A stretch of 61,617 nt of DNA from a virus (taxonomy: Duplodnaviria; Caudoviricetes), in the IMG/VR virus record IMGVR_UViG_3300037755_000275, positions 1-61,617 of that record, one strand, 5' to 3'. The notes under the pieces are model-generated. The model was not told the DNA's origin, did no database searches, and worked only from the letters and a program-made list of their open reading frames with translations. The position numbers were made by a program, and so were the translations under genes. Positions 26,341 through 51,029 of this stretch are shown piece by piece (within the stretch, counting starts at the first letter, position 1; each line of letters begins with the position of its first letter).

Positions 26341-26739
26341 TTACCCGGAGGGCTGGTCAAGAGGGGGCGACGTGCCTCCCTGTTGGTAGCTGGCCAGCTT
26401 GACTGTAGGATCTATGCCGATCCAGCCCGCCACGGTCTGTGCATAGTGAACCGGCTTGTTGTTGTCGGTAGCAGGGGCGTAGCCGGCATACACGAGACCC
26501 TTGCCGGCAAAGAACTCGTACAGGTTGAGCCCACGGTCAATATTCAGCTGGATCTGGCGGTGGAGGGCAGCCCAGCCGGCCTCAACGGTTGGAAACTTGG
26601 CATACCCTTCGCTGATCGGGTTTGAGCCCCACGAGCGCAGGTTTCCTGGGTTGTTGTTTCTTTTGGCCAGCGTGTTCTCGGAATTGTAGAATCCCTCAAA
26701 CCGTGCGATGGCCTGTGCCAGGTCGCTTACCAGGTTCAT
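26341..26739 (-). CDS. Lysozyme-like peptidoglycan hydrolase (NNPGN family)
   Basis: AIARFEG, RNNNPGNLR, YAKFPTVEAG, YAPATDNN...YA. Confidence 0.8.
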   Translation of the reverse strand: MNLVSDLAQAIARFEGFYNSENTLAKRNNNPGNLRSWGSNPISEGYAKFPTVEAGWAALHRQIQLNIDRGLNLYEFFAGKGLVYAGYAPATDNNKPVHYAQTVAGWIGIDPTVKLASYQQGGTSPPLDQPSG

Positions 26740-26775
26740 GGTGCCCTCCCTTCCCTCTACCCTGACACCTTCTAC

Positions 26776-26934
26776 CTACTCAGTCGGCCGTTTGGCAAAC
26801 AACGCATACAGTGCCAGTGCCAGCGTGGATGTCTCCTGGGCATACGGAATGGCTGGGGCCAACTCCTGCGCTTGGCTGGCACCGATTGCCGCCGCGCTCA
26901 CCGCAACGATTTTGAGTATCTTGGCAAACTTCAT
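26776..26934 (-). CDS. Small membrane protein, holin-like (52 aa)
   Basis: MKFAKILKIVAVSAAAIGASQAQ...STLALALYALFAKRPTE. GAGGGGAG RBS; next to the lysin. Confidence 0.55.
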   Translation of the reverse strand: MKFAKILKIVAVSAAAIGASQAQELAPAIPYAQETSTLALALYALFAKRPTE

Positions 26935-26949
26935 TTTGTGTTCTCCCTC

Positions 26950-27165: not shown

Positions 27166-27461
27166 TACTTGCCACCTCCACCGAATCTGGAAAGAGCCGC
27201 TGTGATGACCTTGACCCCGTCGCCTCCGAATGCGTAGACGATCATGACTAAGGCCATGCCACCGATGATGTAGCCTTCCTGTTGCACTTCCCAGGTCTTG
27301 GATGTAATGGACAGAAACCCCGTCACTGATCCAACGACCACCGCCACATGGATCGTCTTCCATATCGGGTGAACGCTGTTCTCCTTGGATGTCACCGTAG
27401 ACGCCACTGTGGACTTGACCCGGCTCAGTACCGTATCCGGCCTATCGTTGTCAGAATGCAT
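27165..27461 (-). CDS. Two-TM membrane protein, holin candidate
   Basis: IHVAVVVGSVTGFLSI and YIIGGMALVMIVYAF. Confidence 0.6.
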   Translation of the reverse strand: MHSDNDRPDTVLSRVKSTVASTVTSKENSVHPIWKTIHVAVVVGSVTGFLSITSKTWEVQQEGYIIGGMALVMIVYAFGGDGVKVITAALSRFGGGGK

Positions 27462-28956
27462 AAGCGTCAACCCCTCCTCCCCCTGGCCGTTGTGGAGCCC
27501 CCGATGTAAGCGTACTGACTGGGGCTGGTGGAGTCAACAATGGAAAGGACGCGCCGGGCACTACCAGGTCCGATTTCAATTCCGCATTCAGTGGGAAGTA
27601 GTCCAGCATAGCCTCGTCCTGAAACATGGGGTCCACTGCCAACCCGGTGTCAATATCGGTGGCCGCGCCAACCGGGGTAGTACCAATATTGGTGTACCGT
27701 GCCGTGGGACAGACATTGGCCGCATTGCCCTGCCAGACTGTGTGAGGTTCACCACTTCCACCAAACAGGTTGGAGGCTCCCGCCCCGCCAACCCAGCACG
27801 CTGCGCCCAACGTAGACGCCTCGTTGATGACATTGCCTGAGACGATGGTAAGAAAATTTGCTCCAACCAGGACTCCGGCATTGCCACCATCCAGCAGCGT
27901 GTTGTACATCAGTATGCCGCCGAATCCGTTGTTGAGTGACCCGCTGATGATAGGCTGATTGACCCCGGCCTGGTTGATGATATTGAACAGTAGCGCGGGT
28001 GGACCCGTGCTTGAGAACGCCGCGCCTGACCCGGAGCAACCGTCAAAGTAGTTGCCGATCACAACATCCGCTTCACCACTGGAACCACAGCTAGTGGTGA
28101 ATGGCCCTGTGAACTGACTGCTGATGACCAGCGCAGGGTTGGCCTGCAATGCCCCGTAAGCAGTAGCCCACGATCCTTGGCTGTTGCTTGTCAATACATT
28201 CTTGACTGCTGAGACACCTGACACAGTGAGAGCGCCGGATGTACCGGCAGCCGTGTCCTTTATCAGGTGGAGGTTTTCTATTTTTGCTGACGACGCAGCA
28301 GACTGGGCGAAGTAGCCACCATTTGTCTGGTACAAAATTGGTGTAGGGTTATCAGGATCGTCACCACGAATCACGATCCGGCCATTCCCTACTTGGGTCA
28401 GGTTGGTTGCAGCAAATACACATCCGGCAGCTTCAACTCCAACTTCTATGTCCGTGTAGGTTGTCCCAGTGTTTTCCAGGATGACTGTCCAGCCTGACTT
28501 GAGATCATTGCACAAGCGAGTAACGTTGGCAAGGACACCGGCTATCTCGCCACCCACGACACAAGCCACAGCCACACCAATGTTGAACGAATCCTGGACA
28601 ACAAACGTATCCGCATTCGGGACGCTGGAAATCCTGGACCACCTCCGCCCAGTTGCCGTCTCCATCCACACTGCGGCTGACCCGTCTGTAGGCACCGCGC
28701 CAAGTCCGTGTCCTAAAGACTGGATCGTTGTACTGGCCCCAGTCGTGGCACATAGGCTGGGTGGGACAACAGGTCCGAACGTAGACGGCGCTCCACTCGC
28801 GGCCGGCGGGTTGGCCCCCGTCACGTTGTTGATGACAATGGTGGGGTTGATGGTCTGGCCGTTTGCGTCTGGAACCCCCGCCATGCACAGCACCATGGCC
28901 ATGGCACACAGCGCCCGCAGCGGACCCGGCGGCGTCACATTCATGCACTGGATCAT
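27451..28956 (-). CDS. Putative spike/receptor-binding beta-helix protein 2 (signal-peptide-like N-terminus)
   Basis: Asn/Gly/Val-rich repeats (IGNYF, FNII, YNTL, GNVI); paralog of 28970-30490. Confidence 0.65.
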   Translation of the reverse strand: MIQCMNVTPPGPLRALCAMAMVLCMAGVPDANGQTINPTIVINNVTGANPPAASGAPSTFGPVVPPSLCATTGASTTIQSLGHGLGAVPTDGSAAVWMETATGRRWSRISSVPNADTFVVQDSFNIGVAVACVVGGEIAGVLANVTRLCNDLKSGWTVILENTGTTYTDIEVGVEAAGCVFAATNLTQVGNGRIVIRGDDPDNPTPILYQTNGGYFAQSAASSAKIENLHLIKDTAAGTSGALTVSGVSAVKNVLTSNSQGSWATAYGALQANPALVISSQFTGPFTTSCGSSGEADVVIGNYFDGCSGSGAAFSSTGPPALLFNIINQAGVNQPIISGSLNNGFGGILMYNTLLDGGNAGVLVGANFLTIVSGNVINEASTLGAACWVGGAGASNLFGGSGEPHTVWQGNAANVCPTARYTNIGTTPVGAATDIDTGLAVDPMFQDEAMLDYFPLNAELKSDLVVPGASFPLLTPPAPVSTLTSGAPQRPGGGGVDAYAF

Positions 28957-28969
28957 GGCCGCCACGCAG

Positions 28970-30490
28970 TCAGATGCCAACATTGTTGAACCCCCCGACC
29001 CCACCGCCCGGCTGAATCGCACCGCACGCCACTTGGCTTGCCGTCAACGTCCCAGGAAAGAACTGGCTCAGCCCTGGAGGCCATGACTGTATCGTGAAAT
29101 TGGTTACCCTAGGCGTGAAGTCCCCAGTAACCTCATCCACATACAGCGGGTTGATGTTGATGACATTAGGCCCAAGGATGAAACCGCTGACGTTGGCCAG
29201 ATTCGCCGCTCCACCTAACCCATAGCAGTTGAAGTCCACCATAGCTGACTCCCGCTCTATGTTCACCGCTCCACCTGTGTAGCTCACCCCCGTAGTGTTG
29301 TTCGTCAACAGATTTGATGCAAACAGCAGATTGGCAATTGATGCCTCATTCGTAATACTCACCCCGGCTACATTGTCATCAAATGTGTTGAACAACAGTG
29401 CCCTGTAGCCAGTGAACTCATCGTAGGCCAGCGTGACTCCAGCCGTTGTCTGTCCCCAGAACACATTGCCCAACAGCCGGAGGGATACAGTCTGACTTCC
29501 GGTGGCCGGCCCGCTGAATCCAACCCCATTGTCCTGGAACACGCTGGCGATGACCGTATAGATGGCCGTGGATATCCCTGTGGCTACAATCCCGGTCGTG
29601 TTGTTGCGAATCAGACTGCCCAGGATAATCCGATCATTGTTGATCCAACTGATCCCGGTCTCAAACGCGGATGCCACTGCGGGTCCGCCTATGATCGTGT
29701 CCCGGATGATCTGCTGTCCGGTCAGATCCAGTGTCAGACCAATCGTCCCGGCCTTGTTGGCATTGCTGTTGTTGAACTCAATACCCACGATGTCCGCCCC
29801 TCCCAGCCTCAGACATGTGGCCCCGGTAAAATTGCACTCGATAACCGGCCTTGTTCCCCCCAGCGCCACGCCATAGAACCCGGACCCGCTTGTACTGGCC
29901 ACCTGGGCTCTTGTAGCAGTCCAGACGTAATTAGGTCCCTGGTTGACCACAAATATCTGCCAGCCACCCGCCGCCGCGCCATGGGTCCCTGAATTGTGAT
30001 CCCCCAACATGTCAGCGGCCAATTGTACTTCCACATTCAGCAACCGTCCACCAACTGCACAGTCCACCGCCGACACTGCCGCGATGTTGAATGAGTTCTC
30101 TACAGTCAGAGTGTTGTTGTCGGGCACAGCCAGTATTTCGGTGAACTGCCTTCCTGCTGCCGTGCCCAGGAACAAGATTCCACAATTCTCCGCCCCTGAC
30201 GTGGTACACGCATTCCCGGCCGGGAGCACAATCCCATGTGCTGGCCATTGAATTGTTGTACTCGCAGCACCATTGGTGTGACACGTAGCCAGCGCCGTCA
30301 CTGGGCTCATTGCTTCCGGGCTCCCGCTGGCATTCGGCGTAGGCGCACCATTCACGTTGTCCACAAAGATTGATGCCTGACTGCCCTGTGCCGTCTGGAC
30401 AAGCAATCCGAGTCCCACCAGCCACAGTAGAGCAAACAACCAATCCAGCACCCGGATCAGCCTGGAGGGAGATTTGAACAAATCAGACAT
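28970..30490 (-). CDS. Putative spike/receptor-binding beta-helix protein 1 (signal peptide)
   Basis: WLFALLWLVGLGLLVQTAQG; pectin-lyase-like repeats NNTTGI, DNGVGF, FNTFDDNVAGV; NPLYVD..GDF. Confidence 0.7.
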   Translation of the reverse strand: MSDLFKSPSRLIRVLDWLFALLWLVGLGLLVQTAQGSQASIFVDNVNGAPTPNASGSPEAMSPVTALATCHTNGAASTTIQWPAHGIVLPAGNACTTSGAENCGILFLGTAAGRQFTEILAVPDNNTLTVENSFNIAAVSAVDCAVGGRLLNVEVQLAADMLGDHNSGTHGAAAGGWQIFVVNQGPNYVWTATRAQVASTSGSGFYGVALGGTRPVIECNFTGATCLRLGGADIVGIEFNNSNANKAGTIGLTLDLTGQQIIRDTIIGGPAVASAFETGISWINNDRIILGSLIRNNTTGIVATGISTAIYTVIASVFQDNGVGFSGPATGSQTVSLRLLGNVFWGQTTAGVTLAYDEFTGYRALLFNTFDDNVAGVSITNEASIANLLFASNLLTNNTTGVSYTGGAVNIERESAMVDFNCYGLGGAANLANVSGFILGPNVININPLYVDEVTGDFTPRVTNFTIQSWPPGLSQFFPGTLTASQVACGAIQPGGGVGGFNNVGI

Positions 30491-30647
30491 TCTCTACTCC
30501 CTCTCCTTTTTCATCTTTGACTGCCGGTACCTATTGAGCGTCTCCCGGTTGTCCTCCCACAACTGGACCAACTGCTCGTAGCTCAGCCCTTCCAGTTCCC
30601 TGTCCAGTTCCCTGACTTTCTTTTCCCGTTTCATCACCCTCTCCCTT

Positions 30648-31856
30648 TTACTGATATGTACACACCACCGTGACATCCTGCCCCGCCACGCCGCTCCCCA
30701 CCTGTGTTATGTCAATCGTATAAAAATCATCTAACGTGGCACTGGGCGTTGCAAACGTCTGGACATTCGCCGCCACATTCTGACCAGCCGCAATCCTTAG
30801 ATTCCCACCCGGCACAAAAATACTGGTCACCCCATTGTGCAGCACGTCAAACACCAGGTCCGCCCCGGTCGGCGCTGTCTTCGCCTGTGCCAGACACATG
30901 GCCAGACTGATTGGCCCAGTCACAATCACCCTGTTGGTGATATTCGTATCCACCGTACATGGACTGCCCAAGCAAATAGCAAACGTGGCCCTGGCTGCCT
31001 GACCACTCCCCCCAAACGGCGGCAACAATTCACAGAACCCGGTCGGACCCAACGTACAGATAATCTCCCCAATTGGAAACGGCATCCCGGTGTAGTCCAC
31101 CCGCATGGGCGCATTCAACGGCGTCACGGCCAGACTATTCACGCGGAACGCCCGCCAGCTCCCATTGGCCCGCACCATGTTGAAACGGCCAACCCCTGCC
31201 GGTGTCTCCACGTTGGCAATCACCACATCCGCTGAAATAGGCCGCCAATCACCCCCGGCACAAAACGGAGGATCGGGGCACGTATCGCTTGCCTCAATTC
31301 TCACTTGGATCGGGTCCACGTCCGCCACGGCCAGCGGAAACTCCACCGATATCAGACTCCCACCTTGCGACTGATTCGGCATCACTACGCTGGGTATGTC
31401 GTCTGAAATGGTGTCACTCACCCCTGTGCCGCCTGACACGTAGGCCCCATTGCCCACCGTACCAGTCAGGCTGAATGTTGTAGGCGTAATTACCGTGATG
31501 GCATTGTTGGGAACGTTGCAGGCAGTATTCCCCACTACCCCCGTAATCGTAACCAGCGACCCCGCATCCAGTGGCATGAACTGCATGTTCCTAAACGGCA
31601 GCTCGTTGTCCTCGTTGAACGTCGATGGGTCTCTCACTGTCACCACAATGGGCGTGGCGTTACTACAGTTTGTCACCACAAAATTACGTTGATATGCTGA
31701 CTGAAACACCACCTCAGGACTTTGTCCCTTGAGCATCACTGCCCCAAGCACCAGACACAGCACGGTCCATGCGCCAAAGATCAGCCAATGGCCATACTTC
31801 CGCCGCCAGTCCTGTTCCATCTGCTCAAATTCGTTCAACTCATCACCCTTTTTCAC
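30648..31856 (-). CDS. Multi-domain putative virion protein with N-terminal signal/TM
   Basis: WLIFGAWTVLCLVLGAVMLKGQ; SNATPIVVT...GAYVSGG module; C-terminal KTAPTGADLVFDV..IDITQVGS beta domain. Confidence 0.65.
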   Translation of the reverse strand: MKKGDELNEFEQMEQDWRRKYGHWLIFGAWTVLCLVLGAVMLKGQSPEVVFQSAYQRNFVVTNCSNATPIVVTVRDPSTFNEDNELPFRNMQFMPLDAGSLVTITGVVGNTACNVPNNAITVITPTTFSLTGTVGNGAYVSGGTGVSDTISDDIPSVVMPNQSQGGSLISVEFPLAVADVDPIQVRIEASDTCPDPPFCAGGDWRPISADVVIANVETPAGVGRFNMVRANGSWRAFRVNSLAVTPLNAPMRVDYTGMPFPIGEIICTLGPTGFCELLPPFGGSGQAARATFAICLGSPCTVDTNITNRVIVTGPISLAMCLAQAKTAPTGADLVFDVLHNGVTSIFVPGGNLRIAAGQNVAANVQTFATPSATLDDFYTIDITQVGSGVAGQDVTVVCTYQ

Positions 31857-32206
31857 GCCCTTTTCCTCCCCATCTCCATCGCCCACCGTCCCGCCATGAA
31901 CGCCACAGTATCCCCCACATGATTCCGCATACTGACATCCCGGTGCTGTGATGGAAACACCTGCCCCTCCACTACCTCATACGCAGTATGTAGAAGTAGA
32001 GCCTGCCACCACGTACCCACCAACCCGGCGCTGACCATCCCCCATGCAAAATGGCTCCAGGTCCATTCATTGAACAACCTGGCCTGTGCCGTCTCGTGGT
32101 ACCACGGGACATCAGGAGCGGGGGGTATCACATGGGGATAGGGATAAGCCGCAGTGGGCGGAATCACTTCCGCTACCGGCGCGTAGACTGTTTCGGTGCC
32201 ATTCAT
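31853..32206 (-). CDS. Small membrane protein with conserved H/E/N/D residues
   Basis: WTWSHFAWG...HTAYEVVE...NHVGD. Confidence 0.6.
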   Translation of the reverse strand: MNGTETVYAPVAEVIPPTAAYPYPHVIPPAPDVPWYHETAQARLFNEWTWSHFAWGMVSAGLVGTWWQALLLHTAYEVVEGQVFPSQHRDVSMRNHVGDTVAFMAGRWAMEMGRKRA

Positions 32207-32237
32207 TTTTATGATTAAAACACCGTAGCCCGTGGCA

Positions 32238-32684
32238 TCACTTACGGTTCAAGAGCCACAGGGCGATTCCGGCTCCTATGATCCATGGGAGGTAGCTGGC
32301 CACGTCCATGCCCTGTAAGTTGTCCAGGATGCCGCCTACCCGGTCCGTGGGACATGGGGCAAACTCACAATTAGGTCCAGTACGTCCAACCACAGAGCCG
32401 TCTGGGCAGGATTTGGCGTCCATGGGACACATAACGTTAGTCAGTATTGGGGGAGTCGGCAGTGGCACTGCTTGCCCTGTAGTCCGTAGCAGTTCTAATT
32501 GCTGCTGTGCTTTCTGTTGGGCCAACACACTGGGCTTCCAGGTAGATTCATCCAGAAAGATCCCAGTTGGTGGGCCAGGGGGAGGCGGTGGGGTAAACCA
32601 CCAATCCATGCTGGGGTCGGACAATGGTTCACTACCCGGCGGCGGTGGAGGCTGCCCAACACCCTGGAGATAGACCATGGCCAT
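32238..32684 (-). CDS. C-terminally anchored membrane protein with a Cys-rich CPDGS module
   Basis: LQGVGQ; CPMDAKSCPDGSVVGRTGPNCEFAPCP; WIIGAGIALWLLNRK. Confidence 0.7.
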   Translation of the reverse strand: MAMVYLQGVGQPPPPPGSEPLSDPSMDWWFTPPPPPGPPTGIFLDESTWKPSVLAQQKAQQQLELLRTTGQAVPLPTPPILTNVMCPMDAKSCPDGSVVGRTGPNCEFAPCPTDRVGGILDNLQGMDVASYLPWIIGAGIALWLLNRK

Positions 32685-33178
32685 TAGAACACCCACCTGT
32701 TGTCGCGTAACGTGACGAAGGGCACTACCGGGACGATGGCTCCCGTGTACCGTGCTGTCAGTTCCTCACCACCGGGAGTATCTATGGTCATGTTGGCACG
32801 CATTGACCGGAACACCCCGTAGTAGGTTTCGTAGGCATAGACATCGGTCACTCCAGGGATGCCATTGTCCAGTACAGGTACATCCGTCACACTCGGTCCC
32901 ATGGGTTTCCAGCCATCGCCCAGGGGCTCACAGTCGTAGCTACACCATTCAAGGCGGATGCTGATACCGGCTACGGCTATGATTTCGCCGGGGAATGTCA
33001 CCTGCAACGTGTGCATGGCTTGGCCGACGTTTCGGAAAGGGGCTGATACCTGTGCCGTAGTGATCCCGGCGAATACGTTTTCAAATACGACCTGTTGGAT
33101 CACGTTCTGAGCGCCGAGGTAGGTGAACCCAGACGCCAGTAGCAGGACCAGGGCCGCGATCTGTGGATAGCCTTTCAT
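32684..33178 (-). CDS. Secreted beta-rich protein, paralog of the 30648-31856 core domain
   Basis: Signal peptide ...GFTYLGA|Q; shared N..Q...V.FP....I..R.E...W.P pattern. Confidence 0.65.
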   Translation of the reverse strand: MKGYPQIAALVLLLASGFTYLGAQNVIQQVVFENVFAGITTAQVSAPFRNVGQAMHTLQVTFPGEIIAVAGISIRLEWCSYDCEPLGDGWKPMGPSVTDVPVLDNGIPGVTDVYAYETYYGVFRSMRANMTIDTPGGEELTARYTGAIVPVVPFVTLRDNRWVF

Positions 33179-33208
33179 GGTGTCACCACTGCGTTGCAGG
33201 ACAGAGGA

Positions 33209-33565
33209 CTACGGTGGGTCCAGAGTCAGTGTCAAGTTCTGGGGACTGTTGGGTGTCACTACCACCTCGGCGCAGTTTGACGGTGTGCTCTCCACCGGAG
33301 ATCCATCCACCGTGACCTGGGCCGTCACCTGATAGCTCAGCCGACCAAATGGCACATCCGAATCCGTGTGTGTCTTGACTGTCAGGTCCGCCGGATTGAT
33401 CTTGGCAAACGACCCTGGCCCGGTACACGCCCCAGCCTTACGGTAAGCATTCCAACTCATGCCGGTCTGCTCGTCTGGTTGGCTCCAATTGAGGATGACG
33501 TTACGGGCGCAGGCCACCGCCGACATGGACAACAGCAGTGATAGGATGATGAGTAGTCTTTTCAT
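33209..33565 (-). CDS. Secreted FN3-like protein
   Basis: MKRLLIILSLLLSMSAVACA; VILNW...YR...YQVTA...ESTPSN...PQNL. Confidence 0.7.
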   Translation of the reverse strand: MKRLLIILSLLLSMSAVACARNVILNWSQPDEQTGMSWNAYRKAGACTGPGSFAKINPADLTVKTHTDSDVPFGRLSYQVTAQVTVDGSPVESTPSNCAEVVVTPNSPQNLTLTLDPP

Positions 33566-33625
33566 GTATTCCCTTTCACCTATTCCCTTTTTTCACCTAC
33601 CAATCGAAGTACTGTAGGCTATGTC

Positions 33626-36913: not shown

Positions 36914-37283
36914 CCTGGTTCACCTTGCCATCCCAGAACTTCTTGCTACGTTCCCTGGCGTCCAAGTCAGCACATAGCCCAAAGTCGCCGTGATTCTTGC
37001 CACAGAATAGGCAACTGAGGCCGTCCGGCATCCGGCCTACGTCAGCCCATTGCTCCGTAGTCACCGGACGGTGCAAGTGCTCAGCAAAACAGTCATCAAT
37101 GTCAGTGCCGCGTCCTGGCCGGTTCATGATCTGGTTATTGACTGGACACCAGTATGCCTCAAACTTGGGTCTGGGCATGAGCCGTGTCAGCAGCCCCAGG
37201 CCCAGTAGCATCCATGGGTTCCAGTCACCTGAGTTACTGTTCTTTCGTCGTTTCCTGTTAGCCATCACCTTTCTCCTTTTCAC
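36906..37283 (-). CDS. Basic N-terminus + TM hypothetical protein
   Basis: RKRRKNSN, WMLLGLGLL, CLFC. Confidence 0.5.
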   Translation of the reverse strand: MKRRKVMANRKRRKNSNSGDWNPWMLLGLGLLTRLMPRPKFEAYWCPVNNQIMNRPGRGTDIDDCFAEHLHRPVTTEQWADVGRMPDGLSCLFCGKNHGDFGLCADLDARERSKKFWDGKVNQDA

Positions 37284-42342: not shown

Positions 42343-45008
42343 CTACCGTTTCCACAGCCCCAGGACTATGGCCCCCAACGCCCCACCAATGACCAAGGTC
42401 TGTAGGTCAAGGCCCTGGACAAATTCACCCACGCCGGCACCCAGGACAGGGGCACCGTTCACGTAGCCCGTAGCCGTGTCACTGGCCGCAGCACCGTTGG
42501 TCCCTTGGCCGCTCGTATCCCCGCTGCCACCATCCCCGCCACAGCAACAGCCGGACATGCCAGCCCGCAGAGCCCGGATCAACGGGTTACTGGGCACTGC
42601 CAACCTGGACGGCATCAGGTCCCCGAACTTGGGCACGTAGCCGATGTCCCCGGCGAAACCATATGGCATCAGCGCACGGGACTTGTTATCCACGATGGGA
42701 TTCTGTGGCACGACAAAGAAGCCTGGGATGAGATCCCCGAATCCTGGTGCCGGATGGTGGTTGATCCACATAGTTTGTTTCTCCCTTACCTTCGTCCCTT
42801 ACCTTTTGGCCAAGACCACTACGCCGAAAATCGCCGCCCCGATCAGAAACATGGTCGTATAGTTGATTACTGGTTTCGTACCTGGCTCTGGCGGCTTGCC
42901 AGTGACCAGAGCCCATGTGCTATAGGCAGAACACATTTCCGGGTTGGCTCTGCAATAAGCCGCTACTGACTTGTCACCAGCCTCAATCGCCCGCTGACGC
43001 ATCTCAGGAGTCATCGCTGGCCCAAAATCAGCCGCCTGACACTTGGATGGGTCAATTGGCAAACACTCGGCTACCATGGCACCTGCTTGGCCAAGGTAGT
43101 CACACCAGGCCGGTGATGGAGCACAGGGGTTCGTCTCCCTCTCACTGGGCCACAGCGGGATGTACTGATACCACGGTGTCTGACCCATGCCACGGTTGGC
43201 TGTCCACCTGTGCATGGCGTCATGGTCCAATCGCTCGAATTTTGAAATCAATGGCATTCGTTACTTTTTCGTCAAAGTGCTCAAGGCCAGTAGGCCGACC
43301 AAAGATCCCGCAATCAGCAACCAGTTGTCATTCACCCAGGCCAGGGCCGTGTCCGGCGGTCGTGGCGCTAATGGTGGCTGCCCACCTGTCACCGTAGGCG
43401 GCGGTGAAAACAGAGACGGCAGCATTCCCCACCACTGGTCCTCAGCGCGGGTGACAGGTGTACCGGCTTGGATCAACGGAACGTTGGCCATCCAGTCCAC
43501 GTTGCCCATCGCAGTACGTGGATCAAATACACGCCCCATGCCGTCCATGTCCATCACCGGGATCTGGTCGCAGTCTTTGGCACCCGGTGGCACTTGCAGA
43601 CTGGGCACGATTCCTGGCCTGTTGATCGGGATGCGTGACTCCACAATACGGACCACTTCCTCCGGCTCAAAGTAGTGAGCCAACAGCGTGTAGTTCGGAT
43701 TGTTTTTCACATGCGGAGGTATTTGCATCGTCTGTTACCACTTGACCTGTAGTGCCTCTATTTGCTCTACTTCCTGTTTGCATTCTTCATCTGTCATCCC
43801 AGGGTCAGCTTGAACGGCCCAGCCATCGTACAGACCATCTTTGGTGAAGTAATGGACGATGGGCTGTTTACCGGGGGCGCGGCACACGATGCTATCAAGT
43901 TCCTCCCCGTCTTCCACGTAGGAACCGTCCGGTATGTACAGCACACGGTTCAGGTCCTTGTTTCCACCGTCACCAATAACCTTGAGGTTCATCACTTGCC
44001 CTTTCGCAACAGCACCCAGGCCAGCACGCCGCCGATGGCAAATGGTGCCAGCCCTTCTGTCATGGATATCCCAGGACAGTCCTCCAGGTACACATCCGGG
44101 GATGGTGCCCAGTCCCCAAAAGTCCGCGTACCGATGTCGGCGGCCAACGGCCCGTAGTCGGCCGGTCCCGGAGGAGGCACCAGTTGTGCCGGGCATCTTC
44201 GCCAGTCAAATATCACCATTTAGTTGCCCCCTTCGTAGAGACTTGCCTGTTGGCCCCACCAGTTGACTCCGGCCATGCCGTTGCCATTGACCCGGCCAAG
44301 TCCCATGGGACCCTTGACCATGGCCCACCACTGGTCAATCGTCAGTGGTGTGTTCTGCACGTCGTCTACGCCCAGTGGCTTTCTTCCCAATTTCGTGGCC
44401 TGCCACAGTGACTCCGGCACAGCAAACGGGTCCACGGCGGGCAGATTCGCTGGCAGATAAAAGTTCCATTGCCAAAAGTGCAGCTCCCCACCATTGGCAG
44501 TGGCCTCACCCTTCGCTGCCTGCCACACCTGGTCCTTGACGTTGCCGCCGCCGGACTGTCCGCCGCCCACGGTATTGCTGCCAACCTGTTGCCCAGCATC
44601 ATTTTGTTGGCCCGGCGTCTGGCCAGTGGTATTGGTAATCGGGACCTGTCCACCATTCGATATGGGGGCAACGTCGCTGGCCAGTCCCACGTAATCTGGG
44701 ATCATGCCCTCGCCTACTGCCCACCTGTAACCGAAGTAGATGGCCGCACCGATGGCCGCGTACTTGACCACCCCGCCCATGTCGCCCATGCCGCTTGTTT
44801 TGGCCATTCACTTCCCTTTCTTTTTGCTGCCTGTTGCCACAAACAGGGCTGCCCCTGCCAACAAAGCCAACAATGCACCTGCACCAATAGCCCCACCACT
44901 ACAGGAACCACAGGCCGTGGCAACCGATTGCACAGCAGCCATGCTGGGAACTCCCAGCATTCCGTAGCGCAATCCCTGACGTACTATGTTTGGCAACTGG
45001 GCTGTCAT
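42343..45008 (-). CDS. Cluster of seven small proteins, mostly membrane-anchored (42343-42771, 42799-43257, 43261-43728, 43735-43992, 43992-44219, 44220-44807, 44808-45008)
   Basis: Tightly coupled ORFs. Five end in a TM helix plus K/R tail, one has an N-terminal TM, and 43735-43992 is soluble and acidic. Confidence 0.7.
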
Positions 45009-46138
45009 TTCTTACTCATCACCATGTAGCCGCCGACTGCTGCACCGGCCCATACCCACCAGGGAAGGTCACCCAAGGCACCAAACAGTCCACCATCCCC
45101 ATCCCCAGCCGGAGCGCCAACACCCGTGCCAAAGTATCCATAGTCCGTAACTGCCGTCACTGTCTGGCCATCTCCTGACACCACACCCTCACCGACAAAG
45201 AATCCCGGCGGCACCTTCAGCGCTTCCTGCACCATCTCCAGACTGGAATTGGCGTTGTAGGCAATGGCCGCCCGCCAGCTTACCCGTCCATCGGACCGCT
45301 CAATATCCAACCCCTTGACCAAGGACTGCATCAACTGTTGGCGTAACTGTGCCCCCTGCTGAGCTACCGCCGCAGCATCTTGTTGAACAGTCACAGATCC
45401 ACCAGCCGCAGCATTGACAGCCGCCGTGATTGCAGCCTGGGATTCAGGAGTCCCAATAGCCGAGGTGGGTACTCCCTGCTGGATTGCCGCCGCCGTGGCC
45501 TGTGTCCTGGCCGCCGAGGTAATTGCCGTCCCCGGATTCAGGTTGATGGCATAGGCCCCATGCTCATAGGGTCCGCCGTCAATCGAACACATCATGGTCG
45601 GGTAGTTCAAACCACCCGGCACATTAGACGGATACACCAACTTGCAATTGACCGTGTGCCTGGTCTGCTGAAAATACTGCTTGGCATAGTCACTGAGCGG
45701 CTGTGCCATCTGCTGCTCAACCGACATGGAGGCATAGTCGGAGGCGGATGCGCTGGACTGTTGCACCACTGACTGTGGCGACTGGCAATAGCCGTTGTGC
45801 CAGACACGGCCTGGGCTGCACCGGCAACCGTCAGGACCCTCCGGCCCGGTATAGGCAGCAGTACGCCCGCTTCCCTCAGGGCAGTTGGCCCCAAGACTAC
45901 CAATGCCGTTGTACCGAGTCGGCAGAGCACCGGGCCAGTCCAGGTAGCTCAGCCAGTTCCACATGGGCACGCGGTCCATCTGGGCACGAACCTGGGCAAA
46001 CTCATCCGGCAGCACACAGGCTTTCCGCACCCGGTCCCACACGTAGGGATACGGACACAGCGCACGGGACTGTTGCCCCACCGCGCCGTTGTTGAACGCG
46101 CCCGCCTGTTGCGCCTCGTTGACCTTTACGTGTGCCAT
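45005..46138 (-). CDS. C-terminally anchored membrane protein with Cys-rich modules
   Basis: CPYPYVW..AC, CPEG...CRCSPG..YC; WWVWAGAAVGGYMVMSKK. Confidence 0.7.
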   Translation of the reverse strand: MAHVKVNEAQQAGAFNNGAVGQQSRALCPYPYVWDRVRKACVLPDEFAQVRAQMDRVPMWNWLSYLDWPGALPTRYNGIGSLGANCPEGSGRTAAYTGPEGPDGCRCSPGRVWHNGYCQSPQSVVQQSSASASDYASMSVEQQMAQPLSDYAKQYFQQTRHTVNCKLVYPSNVPGGLNYPTMMCSIDGGPYEHGAYAINLNPGTAITSAARTQATAAAIQQGVPTSAIGTPESQAAITAAVNAAAGGSVTVQQDAAAVAQQGAQLRQQLMQSLVKGLDIERSDGRVSWRAAIAYNANSSLEMVQEALKVPPGFFVGEGVVSGDGQTVTAVTDYGYFGTGVGAPAGDGDGGLFGALGDLPWWVWAGAAVGGYMVMSKK

Positions 46139-46178: not shown

Positions 46179-47381
46179 TCACATCTGCAATGCCACGAAA
46201 GCCAGCACTCCGGCAATCAGCAGTGGGGTGAGATTGCCCATGTCACCAGTGCCCTGGGTCCGGTACACCGTTTGACCTGTCACAGGGTCCACTTCGGCTA
46301 CCAGGCCGGGATCAGGGACCACATCCGGGTCATTGGCGATTGGGTCCCTGTAGCGTGCAAACCAGTCCCACTGGCCACCGGGTTTGCGGTCGTCAATGCA
46401 CCATTTACCGGGCGTGCCCATGTCAGGGATGCCGCAGGACTTGACCACGTAGTCCCAGCCGGCGTCAAAGTTTTGTAACGCCTGGTATTGGGATGAGACC
46501 GTGTGGGGGCCGGACATGTAACCAGCCAGGTTTTGCTGCATCATGGGCTCTACGCTGTCCACAATTTCAGTGGTGGCGCGTTTCTGGCCCGGCTTCTTGC
46601 GGCTGAATAGGGCCATGAGTCCAATGGTCACGCCTGCTACGGCCAGACCAATGGGACCACCGGCGGCGGCAAGCCATACGGAGCTGGATGCCAGGGAGCT
46701 ACCTGATGCAATGGCGGCGGATGTTACTGCCAGACCTGTGCCCACAGCAGCCTGGGTTGTGGAACCACCAGACGGTAGACGGAATCCGCCCTGGGTTGTC
46801 TGTCCCTGTGTGAAGTACTCGGAAAGATCCTGACCAAGCCCACCTAGTCCGTTCTGTGTCTGGTGGAACGGCTTGGGGTCAACGTAGATGAACTTGTCAT
46901 AGCCGACCACGCCACGGTGTTCCATGGGACGGGATAGGGCCTTGGCCGCTTTGTCAATCCGTGCCTGACGTTCCAGCTCCTCAAGCTGCGGGTCCGTGTT
47001 CATGGCCCGGAGCGCCCATTCCGTACCCATGCCGATGATGACGCCTTGGGTGATGGGATCAAGGAAGCCTAGGGAACCAAGGGAGCCATCACTGCGGCGG
47101 TAGACGCCACGGGCTGCGGCCGGCGCTGGTTGGCCCACGTGACTGAGTAGCCAAGCCGTGTCCTGCACACGGGAATTGATACCAGAGAATGCGCCAGGGT
47201 GACCATGGCGGCGGCGCTCACGGACACGGCGGGATGGCGTGGCGTCAGCACTGGCGGGCTGGGCTACGTGGGACAGCAGCCAGGCTGTGTCCTGCACACG
47301 GGAGTTGATGCCACGCACACCACGGCCGGGGGGACGTGAGACGTGTCCACCAAGAGCCGATCTGTAGGAGGTTTGTTGCAT
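46179..47381 (-). CDS. Membrane protein with an internal repeat and Gly/Ala-rich hydrophobic segment (entry protein candidate)
   Basis: GINSRVQDTAWLLSHVxQPA twice; AAAGGPIGLAVAGVTIGL; C-terminal TM. Confidence 0.65.
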   Translation of the reverse strand: MQQTSYRSALGGHVSRPPGRGVRGINSRVQDTAWLLSHVAQPASADATPSRRVRERRRHGHPGAFSGINSRVQDTAWLLSHVGQPAPAAARGVYRRSDGSLGSLGFLDPITQGVIIGMGTEWALRAMNTDPQLEELERQARIDKAAKALSRPMEHRGVVGYDKFIYVDPKPFHQTQNGLGGLGQDLSEYFTQGQTTQGGFRLPSGGSTTQAAVGTGLAVTSAAIASGSSLASSSVWLAAAGGPIGLAVAGVTIGLMALFSRKKPGQKRATTEIVDSVEPMMQQNLAGYMSGPHTVSSQYQALQNFDAGWDYVVKSCGIPDMGTPGKWCIDDRKPGGQWDWFARYRDPIANDPDVVPDPGLVAEVDPVTGQTVYRTQGTGDMGNLTPLLIAGVLAFVALQM

Positions 47382-49684
47382 TACCTGTAAGCCGCCCGCC
47401 AACCATTTTTGATGCTCTTTTCCAACCGCGCCTTATGGGCACTGGCGCTGGAGTATCCACGTTTCTTGAGTCGTGATACAGCCTTCCTTGCAGAGGCTAC
47501 GGTGTTGCCAACCCACGCGATGTTGTTGAACCCCGTGGTTGCATAAACTACGTAGCCTTCCCGGTAATCCAGTACTCCGGGATTAGACCGTCGCCTCCCC
47601 TTCCGTGCCATCCCCGCCATTCTCTTAGCCCCATACTTGCGTCTGCCGATTGATGTACACAGACCACCAGGACTACGCACCCCACGGCGCTTCATGGTGG
47701 ATACACATTTGCGGAACCTGGAACCGGTGCCCAGCTTGCCTTTACCAAATGACGGGTTGGCTTTATACCCACGTTCAATTTGCTTGTATCCCACAAAGCG
47801 ATTACCATCCCACCGATGGATAGAGGCTTCCCCTTGTTTTTGTGCTACTGCTTCCGCCTTACTCAAGGCAGCACGTAGCGTGGCATGGTAGGAATGCTCT
47901 CCGCGCCCACGCCCGTTGAACACCATGTACTTTTTTATTGGATTGGATGACCGTGACGGGTTACTCACCCTGCGAAACTGTTTCCGCCACCCACGCTTGA
48001 ACCCGGCCGGTAGCTTGGCCTCAAACCCCTTGACTGCCTTGTGACCAGCAGCCAACAGCTTTTTCATGGCCTTCTGGGCTTCAGTGGCAAGACGACCAAC
48101 CCAGGCCACGGAGTTGCCGACCTGGACCACGTAGCCTTTGCGTGGGTTGTTGACACGGGTATGGGGGTTGGTCCGCCGACGCAGCACGGACGCGGCATTG
48201 CGGCGTCGTGAATTTGGCCTGGCAACCTTGGACCCATATTTGTATGCACTGCCACCAATCTCAGCCAACCCATCTGCTGCACCTACCCGCCAGTTGGCCA
48301 AGTAACTCCGTTGCAGCTCAGTACGCATACTTGGAATCAGATTCCTGTAGGAACCAAACTCCCTTTTAATGGCCGTCTCAATTTGTGACTGGGATGGTGC
48401 CTGTCTCTTGCCACCACGTTTGCCTACCTTGAACCCAGCACGATAGGCTACGGTGCTGAGGGCTTCATAGGAGGGATTGCGTAACCTCCCACCCTTGGCC
48501 ACACTCCTGGTCCCAATCCCTGCATCCCGTCCCCGGCCACGTGGATTCTTGGCACCAGTTGGGTTTATCCACGACTTGGCTTGTCTGAGCGTGTCTGTCT
48601 GCCACACCAACTTTGACTGGTAATACACGTCATAGGAGGTTCGGACACGGCCATCGCCACTACGTCCCCTCTTTTTGACAATCACAAATCCCATGTAGGG
48701 GATACGAGTTGGATTCATCACCCGTGCCCCTACCGACCGTCCAATACGGCCGGCCACGGCCCTGGCGCTGGGTCCGGCTACAGTGCGGCGTGGACGTACA
48801 CCCGGATTGCGTTTCCTGGGACTTGACCCAGTACCGATTACTACCCGCACCCTGTCATCACCGGAACGCCCTTCTTGCCTGTTGATGATGTTGGCCGTTT
48901 CTTCTGCTTCCTTCCTGGACGTGTACCGATACATTGAGCCATGCTTCCGATAACCAATCGGCTCAGGTCCGGGAGTACGCATCTTGCCTTCAGCGACCCA
49001 GTAGTAGGTTGGCCCCTTGCCGGGATTCCTACCCCGAATAATCCTGGGCCTGTCCTTCTTCGGCGGCGTCGGCGGCTTTTTGGTCCTGGGCGGAATCCAC
49101 GCCCGTCTTGCAGCAAGTACCCCGCCGGCTTTTGGCAACCCATACCCGTACCCTGGACCCGTGGCCGTGGCCGTACCGACCGTGAATATCGGGTTCTGTC
49201 TCCCACGCCCTGTAACCCGACTTGCCTTCTTGAACTGTTCCCGCCACCCGACAACCGGCACCTTGCCGCTGACCGGGTTAGGCCCAACCTTTTTAATCAT
49301 GCAAATGCCGAACCCGGCGCGTTTGAGTTTGGTCTTGGCCTTGGTCGTGTCAGGTTTGGAGGCAGAGACGTAGGCCAGGGTGCCTTTGCAGTAGACACCC
49401 CATTTGTGACCGGCGCGGGACTTGGATCGTGGGTTGGTGCGTCGTGTCATGGTGCGCCTACCTCGTGGGTTTCTTTTCTTGGGCAACTTACCACCAAGTT
49501 CGATCACGGTTTGTTCAATGGCTGACTTCCACGCCGGGTGGATCGTAGTACGCAATTGTCCAATCGTTGGTGACCCCGGATAGCTTGCTGAAATTCTGAT
49601 TGAGTCGTTGTACCCACGGCGCTCTGCCAACTTTATTAGTTGGTTCTGAATCTTCCGAAGGTATGTGCGTTCGGCGTCCGTCAC
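47381..49684 (-). CDS. NP-punctuated, highly basic polyprotein-like protein (767 aa)
   Basis: GTG start overlaps the upstream TGA at 49681-49684. 16 Asn-Pro dipeptides, mostly after K/R runs. Confidence 0.75.
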   Translation of the reverse strand: MTDAERTYLRKIQNQLIKLAERRGYNDSIRISASYPGSPTIGQLRTTIHPAWKSAIEQTVIELGGKLPKKRNPRGRRTMTRRTNPRSKSRAGHKWGVYCKGTLAYVSASKPDTTKAKTKLKRAGFGICMIKKVGPNPVSGKVPVVGWREQFKKASRVTGRGRQNPIFTVGTATATGPGYGYGLPKAGGVLAARRAWIPPRTKKPPTPPKKDRPRIIRGRNPGKGPTYYWVAEGKMRTPGPEPIGYRKHGSMYRYTSRKEAEETANIINRQEGRSGDDRVRVVIGTGSSPRKRNPGVRPRRTVAGPSARAVAGRIGRSVGARVMNPTRIPYMGFVIVKKRGRSGDGRVRTSYDVYYQSKLVWQTDTLRQAKSWINPTGAKNPRGRGRDAGIGTRSVAKGGRLRNPSYEALSTVAYRAGFKVGKRGGKRQAPSQSQIETAIKREFGSYRNLIPSMRTELQRSYLANWRVGAADGLAEIGGSAYKYGSKVARPNSRRRNAASVLRRRTNPHTRVNNPRKGYVVQVGNSVAWVGRLATEAQKAMKKLLAAGHKAVKGFEAKLPAGFKRGWRKQFRRVSNPSRSSNPIKKYMVFNGRGRGEHSYHATLRAALSKAEAVAQKQGEASIHRWDGNRFVGYKQIERGYKANPSFGKGKLGTGSRFRKCVSTMKRRGVRSPGGLCTSIGRRKYGAKRMAGMARKGRRRSNPGVLDYREGYVVYATTGFNNIAWVGNTVASARKAVSRLKKRGYSSASAHKARLEKSIKNGWRAAYR

Positions 49685-50331
49685 CGTTTCCCCCGATAGG
49701 TCCCACCACCGACGCCACCACTGAACGCAATCGCCAGCAGGATCATCCCCGCTGCCAGTACCGCAAACTGTCCACCTGCGCTGGAAGGCAACATGCTTTT
49801 CAACTGTTCCGGCAGATACTCCTCCAGTCCGGCCATGGACACGGGAGCACCACCGGGAGCACTGGGCCTCGATACTTGCGCCAGGTACATGGACTACTTC
49901 CTCCGGGACATGGCCATGAATACCAGCACGCCAACCCCGACCAGGGCCACGGTCCCAACTGAGAACCCGGTGGCAAAACCTTCCGGCGTGGCTACCCCAT
50001 ACTGCTGCGACGACAATGAACCCGGAATGATGGGCAACGACGGCTGCGTACCTTCCGGCTGCTGGTAGTAGATGGTCCCCTGCGGCGTTGTCTGCACCAC
50101 GGTCCCAGGTCCATACTTGAACCGCGTGCTGACTGTCTCCACGCCAGTCTTGATGAGATCCTGCCACCAGGTCTGGCCCATGCCACGGGATGCCAGGTAG
50201 CCACGTAGGCCGCCGGATGGTTCATGTCCGCCGGGGACACTCATCGTGCCCTCTAGCGACTGTGCCGAGAATGCACGCCGGATGCGCTGAGCCTGATTGC
50301 CTACCGTGTAGCGGCCAACGACAGCGGCCAT
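49681..50331 (-). CDS. Two C-terminally anchored membrane proteins (49681-49890 and 49894-50331)
   Basis: FAVLAAGMILLAIAF; RGMGQ...VALVGVGVLVFMAMSRRK. Confidence 0.7.
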
Positions 50332-50333
50332 GG

Positions 50334-51029
50334 TCAGATCCCCCCTCTTGCCCACAGGTACATCAGCAGCACGACGCCGACTACGGTCCCAACTCCCATG
50401 CCACCAATTGGCCACTCCTGTATCCGGGTATAGGGCGCGTGTTCCCACCCTGGATGTGGGCCATGACTCGTGTCCACCGCGATCCGTTCCCCCTCATTGG
50501 TGTAGGCGGCAACGTAGACGTGGGAGAACTTACCCACCTCAACCCTGTCCGCCGCGATGGTCACGAACGCGGTACGGATACCCAGCGCCGTCAACAGTGC
50601 TGCCGTATACATGGAGAAGTCGTCGCAGTCGCCCAACCGGCTGCATTGGCGGCCATCACCGCACATGGCGGCCATTTGTTTTGGCCGAACCAGCACTTCA
50701 ATGATGGGGACACTGCCGGGAGTTTCCATCCACGAGGACAGCCGCTCGTCGCCCACGAATGACAGCCGGCGCTTCACGTAGCGGAATACGCGGTCCACGA
50801 TCTCACGCTGTGGGATGTGGCCGTAGTCGATAGTACCTACAGCCTCGTGGGCATCCCTGCGGATCTCAAGTGACTGGGCATCCTCCACCACGTACTGCCG
50901 CATTAAATCTATGGTGGCGGCAACCTGGCCGTCCGCGTCATCCGGGACGTAGCTCTCCTGCGTAGGTAGGACTCGACCGAAGGCTGGATGGTAGAGGGCC
51001 TGCATCCTGCGGGCTAGGCCCCCTCCCAT
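50334..51029 (-). CDS. Transglutaminase-like cysteine protease with C-terminal TM
   Basis: Catalytic Cys-His-Asp motifs GDCDDFS, FSHVY, AVDTS. First gene of the virion operon. Confidence 0.85.
   Translation of the reverse strand: MGGGLARRMQALYHPAFGRVLPTQESYVPDDADGQVAATIDLMRQYVVEDAQSLEIRRDAHEAVGTIDYGHIPQREIVDRVFRYVKRRLSFVGDERLSSWMETPGSVPIIEVLVRPKQMAAMCGDGRQCSRLGDCDDFSMYTAALLTALGIRTAFVTIAADRVEVGKFSHVYVAAYTNEGERIAVDTSHGPHPGWEHAPYTRIQEWPIGGMGVGTVVGVVLLMYLWARGGI

Follow-up and report, generated by a model that had tools for sequence, protein, structure and literature searches.

We conclude, with a probability of roughly 0.6, that the 61,617-nucleotide IMG/VR record IMGVR_UViG_3300037755_000275 (the whole of which is hereafter called the window) represents in full the genome of an uncultured bacterial virus whose particle is icosahedral and tailless, with vertical jelly-roll proteins forming a shell around an internal membrane. 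That the virion is tailless and membrane-containing, and that it holds a nucleoprotein core, we infer from gene content. The evidence centres on a late operon that occupies the minus strand from position 51029 down to 26341. Two of its products, of 203 and 296 amino acids (aa), are predicted to be jelly rolls of the kind used as capsids by membrane-containing icosahedral viruses. Among known architectures, the models place this virus closest to SPV1 or the Helvetiavirae – that is, to shells of single jelly rolls – rather than to one that is clearly PRD1-like.

The two ends of the window are the same sequence:

1–127, no strand: terminal direct repeat, exactly identical to 61491–61617

IMG/VR likewise places the record in its class with direct terminal repeats. 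The repeat of 127 nucleotides implies a unique genome of 61,490 nucleotides that is either circular or terminally redundant, in agreement with an initial annotation – made from the sequence alone – that had described a closed genome of ~61.5 kilobases (kb).

Relatives of the late operon were collected as 12 IMG/VR loci on 25–61-kb contigs, which came from an alignment-based scan (a scan with a single protein returned 0 loci), and as five loci in metagenome-assembled genomes (MAGs) drawn from species-representative genomes. About ten late genes form a syntenic core that is found again in each of the 17 fetched loci. The capsid assignment turns on the following part of the operon, for which counts refer to the IMG/VR loci:

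37941–38552, minus strand: 203-aa protein, a single jelly roll by its AlphaFold2 model and VIA search; most conserved gene of the module
37284–37712, minus strand: 142-aa protein with homology to both halves of the 296-aa protein; 12/12 loci
36906–37283, minus strand: 125-aa basic, Cys-containing small protein, encoded between the 142-aa and 296-aa jelly-roll genes; no conservation in the fetched loci
36023–36913, minus strand: 296-aa protein, a tandem double jelly roll by AlphaFold2, hhalign, Foldseek and VIA
35297–35971 (224 aa) and 34685–35266 (193 aa), minus strand: two core genes whose products are beta-rich by a crude propensity profile; 11/12 and 12/12 loci

The AlphaFold2 model of the 203-aa protein was built from an alignment of 78 diverse sequences and that of the 296-aa protein from an alignment of 27. 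With a mean predicted local distance difference test (pLDDT) score of 90.0 and a predicted template modelling (pTM) score of 0.81, the 203-aa model has eight strands and one internal helix and forms a single jelly roll. An exhaustive structural search with VIA-align against 48,161 representative PDB chains identified an SPV1 capsid chain as its top match (Z 8.0, root-mean-square deviation (rmsd) 3.4, 135 residues aligned), followed by HHIV-2 (Z 6.7), peptidylglycine hydroxylating monooxygenase (PHM; Z 6.7), P23-77 VP17 (Z 6.6) and HCIV-1 (Z 6.6). Four of these top five matches are membrane-virus capsid proteins, and the SPV1 match stands ~1 Z unit above unrelated jelly rolls; P23-77 VP16 scored Z 5.3, and numerous jelly rolls, viral and non-viral alike, rank lower in the list. 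The weak rows of a Foldseek search with the same model were again jelly rolls, including SPV1, SH1 and PRD1 P5.

The 296-aa model (pLDDT 84.9, pTM 0.85) comprises two beta domains, predicted to be jelly rolls in tandem. In VIA searches its C-terminal domain matched SPV1 (Z 7.8), HHIV-2 (Z 7.1), HCIV-1 (Z 7.0) and STIV A223 (Z 6.8), and its N-terminal domain matched the HFTV1 turret protein (Z 6.7) and nucleoplasmin-type sandwiches. Foldseek returned 71 PDB matches to the whole model at E ≤ 1e-3. Among the best 21 of the 71, every match is a jelly-roll virus capsid or turret protein; double-jelly-roll capsid proteins make up 20 of them, including the SGIV capsid (E 4.8e-6), PR772/PRD1 P3 (E ~1e-5), PM2 P2 (E 1.3e-4), PBCV-1 and phiCjT23 (probability 0.92–0.99). 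With VIA alignment of the model to the top 985 chains from Foldseek included, the SPV1 match spans Z 7.8–8.2 (rmsd 3.1, 121 residues aligned; C-terminal domain only); PRD1 P3 reached Z 6.4–6.5. We regard the jelly-roll fold of both modelled proteins as secure at the level of predicted structure, and capsid proteins of membrane viruses as their best neighbours; their kinship with any single family is not secure.

Sequence profiles connect the two smaller jelly-roll candidates differently. With hhalign, the 142-aa family aligned to the N half of the 296-aa protein (probability 98.6%, E 7e-16) and to its C half (probability 97.1%, E 6e-11), and the two halves aligned to each other (probability 97.9%, E 3e-13). 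This mutual alignment indicates that the 296-aa protein is a tandem duplication of the 142-aa domain, and the 142-aa protein is by the same homology probably a single jelly roll. The 203-aa family is unrelated by sequence to the 142-aa and 296-aa families (hhalign probability 0.1%). The initial annotation had grouped the 203-aa and 142-aa products as small, beta-rich, capsid-like paralogs; their capsid-like character is supported by the jelly-roll model of the 203-aa protein and by the homology of the 142-aa protein to the 296-aa one, and their pairing is not, the 142-aa protein being instead the partner of the 296-aa halves.

We favour the 203-aa protein as the major capsid protein on the strength of its model, its structural neighbours and the size of its family. 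The 296-aa protein, which may instead be the main shell protein, would then be a second capsid protein, forming a capsomer or vertex, and the 142-aa protein is a candidate penton. The 224-aa and 193-aa proteins are candidate minor capsid or sub-capsomer proteins. We had also considered these two as jelly-roll paralogues and discarded the idea, having found no significant profile link between them and the jelly-roll families.

Gene order is conserved across the related loci. In transcription order, as scored by BLAST over the 12 IMG/VR loci, the core runs from the 407-aa membrane protein (11/12) through a 142-aa tail-anchored protein (10/12), the C-terminal part of the 739-aa protein (12/12) and the 269-aa basic protein (10/12) to the 203-aa (12/12), 142-aa jelly-roll (12/12), 296-aa (12/12), 224-aa (11/12) and 193-aa (12/12) proteins. 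The MAG loci show the same order. In all 12 IMG/VR loci and all five MAG loci the 203-aa gene adjoins the 142-aa gene, and the 296-aa gene comes next in 16 of the 17, the exception being a 3.6-kb contig that ends before it. Identity across loci is highest in the module for the 203-aa protein (41–56%, versus 25–34% for the 296-aa protein). We compared three complete relatives (two entire, one without its last 646 bases), and a 231-aa transglutaminase-like gene, present in all three, was added to the core.

The 203-aa family is large. We found 320 homologues at E ≤ 1e-3 in a 90%-clustered collection; the 120 of these that were listed are 179–272 aa long, mostly ~200 aa, and none is named, and some among the listed matches lie on 54–76-kb contigs. 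A profile search of a 50%-clustered library returned 925 representatives at E ≤ 1e-3, of which 282 reached E ≤ 1e-10 and 34 reached E ≤ 1e-30. Reference collections did not contain the family: the 203-, 142- and 296-aa proteins had no tblastn match in 50,697 GenBank phage records, the 203-aa family (78 diverse members) matched 0 PHROGs, Pfam had no match for the 203-aa family (all 54 members) or the 296-aa family (all 27 members), and PDB sequence searches gave no match for the three families or for the 506-aa and 739-aa late proteins. A full-text literature search, whose reach did not extend to supplementary tables, found no description of a ~60-kb bacterial jelly-roll virus group. One relative has two copies of the 203-aa jelly-roll gene; the second (L013:13329–14030, plus strand) lies ~9 kb downstream and is diverged, with 31% identity over 106 aa.

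We next consider what the late operon lacks. Thirty open reading frames (ORFs) of the late region (26341–51029) were compared with PHROGs at E ≤ 0.01 and thirty with Pfam at E ≤ 0.1; by our reading of the ORF list, the PHROGs scans of the window covered every ORF of at least 200 aa other than antisense shadows. Only 5 of the 30 matched any PHROG – one, the sole robust match, through a muralytic-type domain, two through short low-complexity 'tail' matches (E 0.0068 and 0.00053) and two through families of unknown function – and the Pfam matches were all sub-threshold. Neither collection gave a match to a terminase, portal, capsid, sheath, baseplate or genuine tape measure among these ORFs.

We extended the search for three of these hallmarks to six-frame translations of this genome and four relatives (58.4, 58.9, 60.6 and 60.2 kb). 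Terminal repeats are present in three of these five records, and three carry a completeness rating of 100%. At profile level, Terminase_6N (PF03237) and TerL_ATPase (PF03354) for the large terminase, Phage_capsid (PF05065) for the HK97 capsid and Phage_portal (PF04860, one of several portal families) were found in 0/5 records, with control genomes positive. Both of the late proteins that we folded are jelly rolls. At the level of sequence profiles, these results uphold the initial description of a late region with no terminase, portal, HK97 capsid, tape-measure, sheath or baseplate motifs.

A packaging ATPase was also sought. Among all ORFs of at least 60 aa, no late ORF carries a convincing Walker A motif; the motif is limited to the helicase, a relaxed version in the primase and spurious matches in two basic stretches. 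P-loop proteins are confined to the replication module, where they comprise the helicase, the primase-helicase and an AAA_24/Sak4-like protein. FtsK_SpoIIIE (PF01580) and Pox_A32 (PF04665) ATPases were found in 0/5 records, and profile comparison by hhalign revealed no similarity to the P23-77 ATPase or to PM2 P9 (<5%). We considered the AAA_24/Sak4-like ATPase as a packaging enzyme and dropped it, though it is kept in 3/3 complete relatives. Its position between the genes for the ERCC4 nuclease and the helicase, together with its matches to recombination families, leaves it as a recombination protein.

The remainder of the late operon is rich in membrane and basic proteins:

50334–51029, minus strand: 231-aa transglutaminase-like Cys-His-Asp protein, core gene, with a C-terminal anchor (transmembrane residues 208–226)
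49894–50448, minus strand: 184-aa tail-anchored membrane protein (transmembrane residues 162–180 of 184)
47381–50167, minus strand: Arg/Lys-rich protein of at most 928 aa; net charge +136, 11 RRRNP-like motifs
46179–47402, minus strand: 407-aa membrane protein with two hydrophobic segments by hydropathy, core gene; 11/12 loci
42343–46138, minus strand: seven smaller genes, of which 42343–42771, 42799–43257, 43261–43728, 44808–45008 and 45005–46138 encode tail-anchored proteins
40083–42302, minus strand: 739-aa basic protein, core gene; net charge +31, 5 RRRNP-like motifs; 12/12 loci
38683–39492, minus strand: 269-aa basic protein, core gene; net charge +58, 3 RRRNP-like motifs; 10/12 loci
27451–34633, minus strand: variable block of nine genes; 0/12 loci for the nine genes that lie between 27165 and 34633
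26341–26739, minus strand: 132-aa muralytic-domain protein (phrog_2276, E 1.7e-15; phrog_873 'endolysin', E 4.3e-10)

Hydropathy analysis identified C-terminal anchors, within the last 25 residues, in six late proteins (those encoded from 42343, 42799, 43261, 46179, 49894 and 50334), and three more C-terminal hydrophobic tails are visible by eye (32238, 44808 and 45005), for a total of about nine. N-terminal anchors or signal-like segments were identified in four others (28970, 30648, 33209 and 33626). The gene at 42343–42771 is kept in 10/12 loci. The many small membrane proteins and the Arg-rich core proteins of the initial annotation are thus both recovered, the latter with net charges of +136, +58 and +31.

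Each of the three basic proteins is a candidate virion component. The 928-aa ORF overlaps the preceding gene, so its true start probably lies downstream of 49894; its product is a candidate DNA-condensing core (poly)protein. Conservation of the 739-aa protein in relatives is limited to the C-terminal ~180 residues, and this protein may connect the core to the shell or membrane. The 269-aa protein, protamine-like in its N-terminal half and Gly/Ala-rich and hydrophobic in its C-terminal half, is a candidate nucleocapsid or DNA-membrane bridging protein. All three carry the RRRNP-like motif (basic-basic-x-Asn-[Pro/Ala/Ser]), which occurs 2–7 times per protein in homologues of the 269-aa protein (loci L001–L011), whereas the remaining ORFs of the same loci have 0.7 per 1000 aa. 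The repeats may mark cleavage sites, DNA-binding turns or something else.

The 231-aa protein matches Pfam Transglut_core at E 0.0036 and 18 bits, under the 23-bit cut-off. Consistent with the transglutaminase-like gene originally proposed, its Cys135, His170 and Asp186 are invariant in 6/6 homologues, their assignment as a triad being our reading of the motif order. It is a candidate maturation protease. The 132-aa muralytic-domain protein is a candidate lysin or entry enzyme; its matches are at the level of the domain, which also occurs within tape-measure and endolysin families.

The variable block encodes two paralogous large acidic proteins (523 and 506 aa; 36% identity over 149 aa), the 506-aa one N-anchored, together with a 412-aa protein that is likewise N-anchored and three signal-peptide-like products (335, 164 and 118 aa). 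None of its nine genes has a counterpart in the 12 IMG/VR loci, as would be expected of host-recognition proteins, and the products of the block may be spikes or otherwise serve host recognition. Weak homologues of the 335-aa protein occur in two MAG loci.

Several observations weigh against a membrane-containing icosahedral virus. Jelly rolls are also found in tail fibres, cement proteins, lectins and enzymes, and such folds are interleaved with capsid proteins in the VIA lists (the phage 7-7-1 tail fibre at Z 6.5, PHM at Z 6.7, nucleoplasmin). The 203-aa model had no Foldseek match in the PDB at E ≤ 1e-3, and its one match in BFVD is an uncharacterised iridovirus protein with a template modelling (TM) score of 0.30. 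Foldseek superposes the 296-aa model on double-jelly-roll capsid proteins with TM 0.2–0.26 and an rmsd of ~20, and on the 985 top chains VIA superposes one of its domains at a time, over at most 134 residues. Values of Z 6.4–8.2 fall in the 'middling' range of the tool, in which Z below 8 can reflect a common arrangement only. No sequence link was recovered either: comparisons by hhalign of seven profiles with PM2 P2, P1 and P9 and with P23-77 VP16, VP17, VP11 and ATPase were all <5%. The FtsK/HerA-type packaging ATPase that is a hallmark of Varidnaviria was not found in the five records, and related ESM Atlas clusters carry the automatic label Uroviricota. Finally, the particle as a whole is a reconstruction, known here from genes and models.

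Given the middling structural matches and the lack of a sequence link to PM2 or P23-77, we describe the lineage as Varidnaviria-like rather than as a shown member of that realm. The large Varidnaviria-like lineage initially suggested is supported to that extent.

Other explanations share parts of this evidence. A canonical PRD1/PM2-type architecture, in which the 203-aa protein would be a conserved minor, cementing or membrane-facing protein, would keep the virus of the same kind and is possible, if doubtful. It would fit the double-jelly-roll capsid proteins that head the Foldseek matches of the 296-aa model (probability 0.92–0.99), the single-domain paralogue adjoining a tandem-domain one, a pattern expected of penton and hexon, and the ESM Atlas, where weak leads to PM2 P2_N/P2_C and PRD1 P3_C clusters scored 0.76–0.78, under the tool's bar of 0.9, with P2_N/P2_C the nearest named clusters (0.78). 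The tandem model does not show the inter-domain geometry of a classical double-jelly-roll hexon, however: rigid-body alignment superposes a single domain but not both together, reaching Z ≤ 6.5 for PRD1 P3, and TM stays at 0.2–0.26. The 296-aa protein is also far less conserved than the 203-aa protein, and no FtsK/A32 ATPase was found in the five records, nor a convincing Walker A in the late ORFs. The window could instead encode an enveloped, pleomorphic or helical nucleoprotein particle, in which basic proteins would coat the DNA, anchored proteins would lie in an outer envelope and jelly rolls would be matrix or spike domains. Compatible with it are the many membrane proteins, the large proteins whose N-terminal signal-anchor-like segments would suit such an envelope, and the abundance of basic proteins where no packaging motor was found. 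We think it unlikely, as the best neighbours of both folded proteins are icosahedral shell proteins and as single and tandem jelly-roll paralogues fit the geometry of capsomers.

The replication module described below is typical of tailed phages, and a very divergent tailed phage – its terminase, portal and HK97 capsid beyond profile detection, its jelly rolls accessory proteins for decoration, cement or fibre tips – would explain that module along with the Uroviricota labels, the fibre and cement jelly rolls among the structural matches (phage 7-7-1 fibre, KHP40 cement, Pam1) and a collagen-like protein at 3–707. Yet TerL, portal and HK97 capsid profiles failed in all five genomes while the controls worked, the late ORFs have no Walker A, and the large ones among them encode basic low-complexity or anchored proteins. 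Accessory proteins are, moreover, seldom the most conserved genes, and the 203-aa protein is. We judge this origin improbable. It is hardly credible that the window is not viral at all: a plasmid-like or conjugative element, with 'late' genes for surface or secretion proteins, could account for ParB, a serine recombinase and a topoisomerase and for classical virion hallmarks not found by sequence, but genome length is steady at 58–61 kb with terminal repeats in three of five records, a muralytic gene and jelly-roll proteins with capsid neighbours are present, and conjugation genes did not turn up in the general PHROGs and Pfam scans.

We return to the tailless, membrane-containing icosahedral virus and to its nearest known systems. 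SPV1 has single-jelly-roll capsomers (hexameric VP4, pentameric VP10), an inner lipid layer and sub-capsomer proteins; its circular double-stranded DNA is condensed into a nucleoprotein core, and its genes include a glycosyltransferase and a methyltransferase, with no ATPase among its nine functionally assigned ORFs (PMC8459092). Its host is a hyperthermophilic archaeon, its genome is ~20 kb, and it encodes no polymerase (PMC8459092). SPV1 (Portogloboviridae), compared here by structure only, is the top structural match of both folded proteins (Z 8.0 and 7.8–8.2), and the window resembles it further in having no detected packaging ATPase, basic candidate core proteins and a Methyltransf_24 ORF. 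The genome here differs in being three times larger, in its full replication kit and in being apparently bacterial. To our knowledge, no SPV1 counterpart of the tandem jelly-roll protein or of the RRRNP-motif proteins has been described.

The Helvetiavirae (P23-77 of the Matshushitaviridae, HCIV-1, HHIV-2 and SH1) have vertical single-jelly-roll capsid proteins from adjacent genes and an internal membrane. They share the fold at middling scores (Z 6.6–6.7 for the 203-aa protein, 6.4–7.1 for the C-terminal domain of the 296-aa protein). P23-77 differs in its 17-kb genome and in a putative packaging ATPase, of a kind that we did not find in the window, and none of its VP16, VP17, VP11 and ATPase shows profile-level similarity (all <5%). 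PRD1/PR772 (Tectiviridae) and PM2 (Corticoviridae) share two jelly rolls per chain (P3, E 1e-5; P2, E 1.3e-4 by Foldseek), a single-domain paralogue here that could be a penton, and many small membrane proteins; they differ in an inter-domain geometry that our model does not reproduce and in an FtsK/HerA-type ATPase, none of which was found in the window. The two halves of the 296-aa protein are still similar in sequence; known double-jelly-roll capsid proteins are not known to have halves so alike.

The basic proteins and the Cys-His-Asp protein recall adenovirus- and asfarvirus-type cores, in which DNA is condensed by Arg-rich core (poly)proteins that a virion cysteine protease then trims. 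We draw this as an analogy; those viruses infect eukaryotes, and their proteases are of other clans. Known bacterial and archaeal jelly-roll viruses are small and for the most part replicate through host machinery or by protein-primed or rolling-circle mechanisms. The prokaryotic double-jelly-roll viruses in the survey by Yutin et al. have genomes of ~7–18 kb (PMC5894146). What appears new in our sequence-based reading is the combination, in a jelly-roll virus of membrane type, of a genome three to six times larger, a replisome of its own, unusual basic core proteins and no packaging motor that we could recognise.

The assembly roles that we propose follow from the likeness to SPV1, in which there is no ATPase among the nine ORFs with an assigned function. 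The late membrane proteins, about nine of them tail-anchored and several N-anchored, would define an area of host membrane from which the inner vesicle forms. The circular DNA would not be pumped in by a motor; the 928-, 739- and 269-aa basic proteins would condense it into a nucleoprotein core, as in SPV1. Bulk capsomers would come from the 203-aa protein and pentons from the 142-aa protein, with the 296-aa protein providing a second class of capsomer or vertex. During maturation the membrane-anchored 231-aa Cys-His-Asp protein may cut the basic proteins at their RRRN-P repeats – a speculative step, and a conjecture drawn from the repetition of the motif. The variable, N-anchored large proteins would serve as spikes, and the muralytic protein would act in entry or exit.

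A bolder version of this scheme, which we offer tentatively and with considerable doubt, is that the window represents a bacterial counterpart of the portoglobovirus design at ~60 kb without a packaging motor, together with a living intermediate between single and double jelly rolls. If true, shell and membrane would assemble around DNA pre-condensed by protamine-like (poly)proteins. A single-domain gene adjoining its own tandem fusion, with halves that are still alike (E 3e-13), would be an intermediate toward double jelly rolls. The family would then bridge Helvetiavirae- or SPV1-like capsids and those of the Bamfordvirae, and would merit at least a new family and probably a higher taxon.

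More broadly, our reading implies a widespread uncultured lineage in which a jelly-roll, membrane-type module sits on a 58–61-kb genome with its own polymerase, primase and helicase. Such a lineage would break the size ceiling assumed for jelly-roll membrane architecture and would imply that replication modules move between virus realms. It would also explain automatic labelling as tailed phage and low completeness estimates: the IMG/VR record lists a CheckV-type completeness of 44 although terminal repeats close the genome, and standard pipelines appear to misjudge the lineage in this and in the Uroviricota labels. The lineage would offer a testable case of motor-free genome encapsidation in bacteria and a sequence-level snapshot of how double jelly rolls may evolve from single jelly rolls. 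With no match in PHROGs, Pfam, PDB sequences or the GenBank phage records, the 203-aa family would provide a new marker for tailless phages in metagenomes.

The host is likely bacterial and possibly acidobacterial. In one relative, the late module forms the first ~26 kb (G001:C13:1–26500; loci L015, L023 and L024) of a 358-kb Bryobacteraceae MAG contig on which ordinary bacterial and housekeeping genes follow from ~40 kb. This contig may carry a prophage at its end or may be a chimeric assembly; beside the former possibility we note that the window encodes a serine recombinase. The other MAG loci lie in bins of unrelated phyla, a scatter suggestive of binning noise. As a clue to the host we set aside the primase homologue of the Bryobacteraceae MAG, which is on another contig and probably belongs to an unrelated element.

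Outside the late operon, the window carries a replication half:

5052–19357, minus strand: replication/recombination module with polymerase, thymidylate synthase, trypsin-like protease, ERCC4, AAA_24/Sak4-like ATPase, helicase and primase-helicase

Consistent with the full phage replication module of the initial annotation, PHROGs and Pfam identified polymerase, helicase, primase-helicase and recombination genes. The family A DNA polymerase is split over two ORFs, 5052–6497 (PHROGs E 4e-78) and 6866–8215 (E 1e-10). A small gene (6630–6869) separates them, and the two-part arrangement recurs in three relatives. PHROGs also matched the helicase (E 5e-74), the primase-helicase (E 3e-79), a topoisomerase (E 4e-112) and, in addition, thymidylate synthase, Sak4-like ATPase, Gam, serine recombinase, ParB and a 'protease'; Pfam added ERCC4, AAA_24, Methyltransf_24 and trypsin-like domains. 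In all, 20 ORFs outside the late region gave replication functions and the collagen-like protein (3–707) in PHROGs, and nothing else. The polymerase, ERCC4 nuclease, AAA_24 ATPase and helicase are common to 3/3 complete relatives.

Within this module, 9973–11223 (minus strand) encodes a 416-aa trypsin-like serine protease with weak NAL1-like matches at its N- and C-terminus. It is a candidate alternative processor of the Arg-rich proteins, and BLAST found no counterpart in the three complete relatives. Further along, a 453-aa ORF (20314–21675, minus strand) has a C-terminal Methyltransf_24 domain by Pfam and an N-terminal part that looks glycosyltransferase-like by eye, and the adjoining 235-aa ORF (21826–22533, minus strand) looks sulfotransferase-like by eye. 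Judging by these resemblances, the two products could modify the virion or the cell surface.

The composition of the window is uniform, with an even G+C content of 54–60% and no tRNA genes. By our reading of the ORF lists nearly all plausible genes lie on the minus strand. The clear exception is 51198–53237, the sole long plus-strand ORF, which encodes a 679-aa low-complexity, Pro/Gln-rich protein and diverges from the late operon. This ORF is kept in two of the three complete relatives and in the Bryobacteraceae locus, and its product has no family match in PHROGs or Pfam.

We also observed a recurrent 11-mer, ATGATTAAAAC (coding strand: GTTTTAATCAT), with 10 occurrences in the window at no more than one mismatch versus 0.38 expected:

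1604, 5298, 11655, 15679, 32211, 42307 and 59859, plus strand; 35952, 46157 and 49290, minus strand: sites of the 11-mer

At 32211 and 42307 the 11-mer stops 4 nucleotides upstream of the ATG of genes 31853–32206 and 40083–42302, and a 31-nucleotide extended form is present in three copies in the window. The 11-mer is absent from three relatives and is a candidate promoter or leaderless-start signal particular to this virus.

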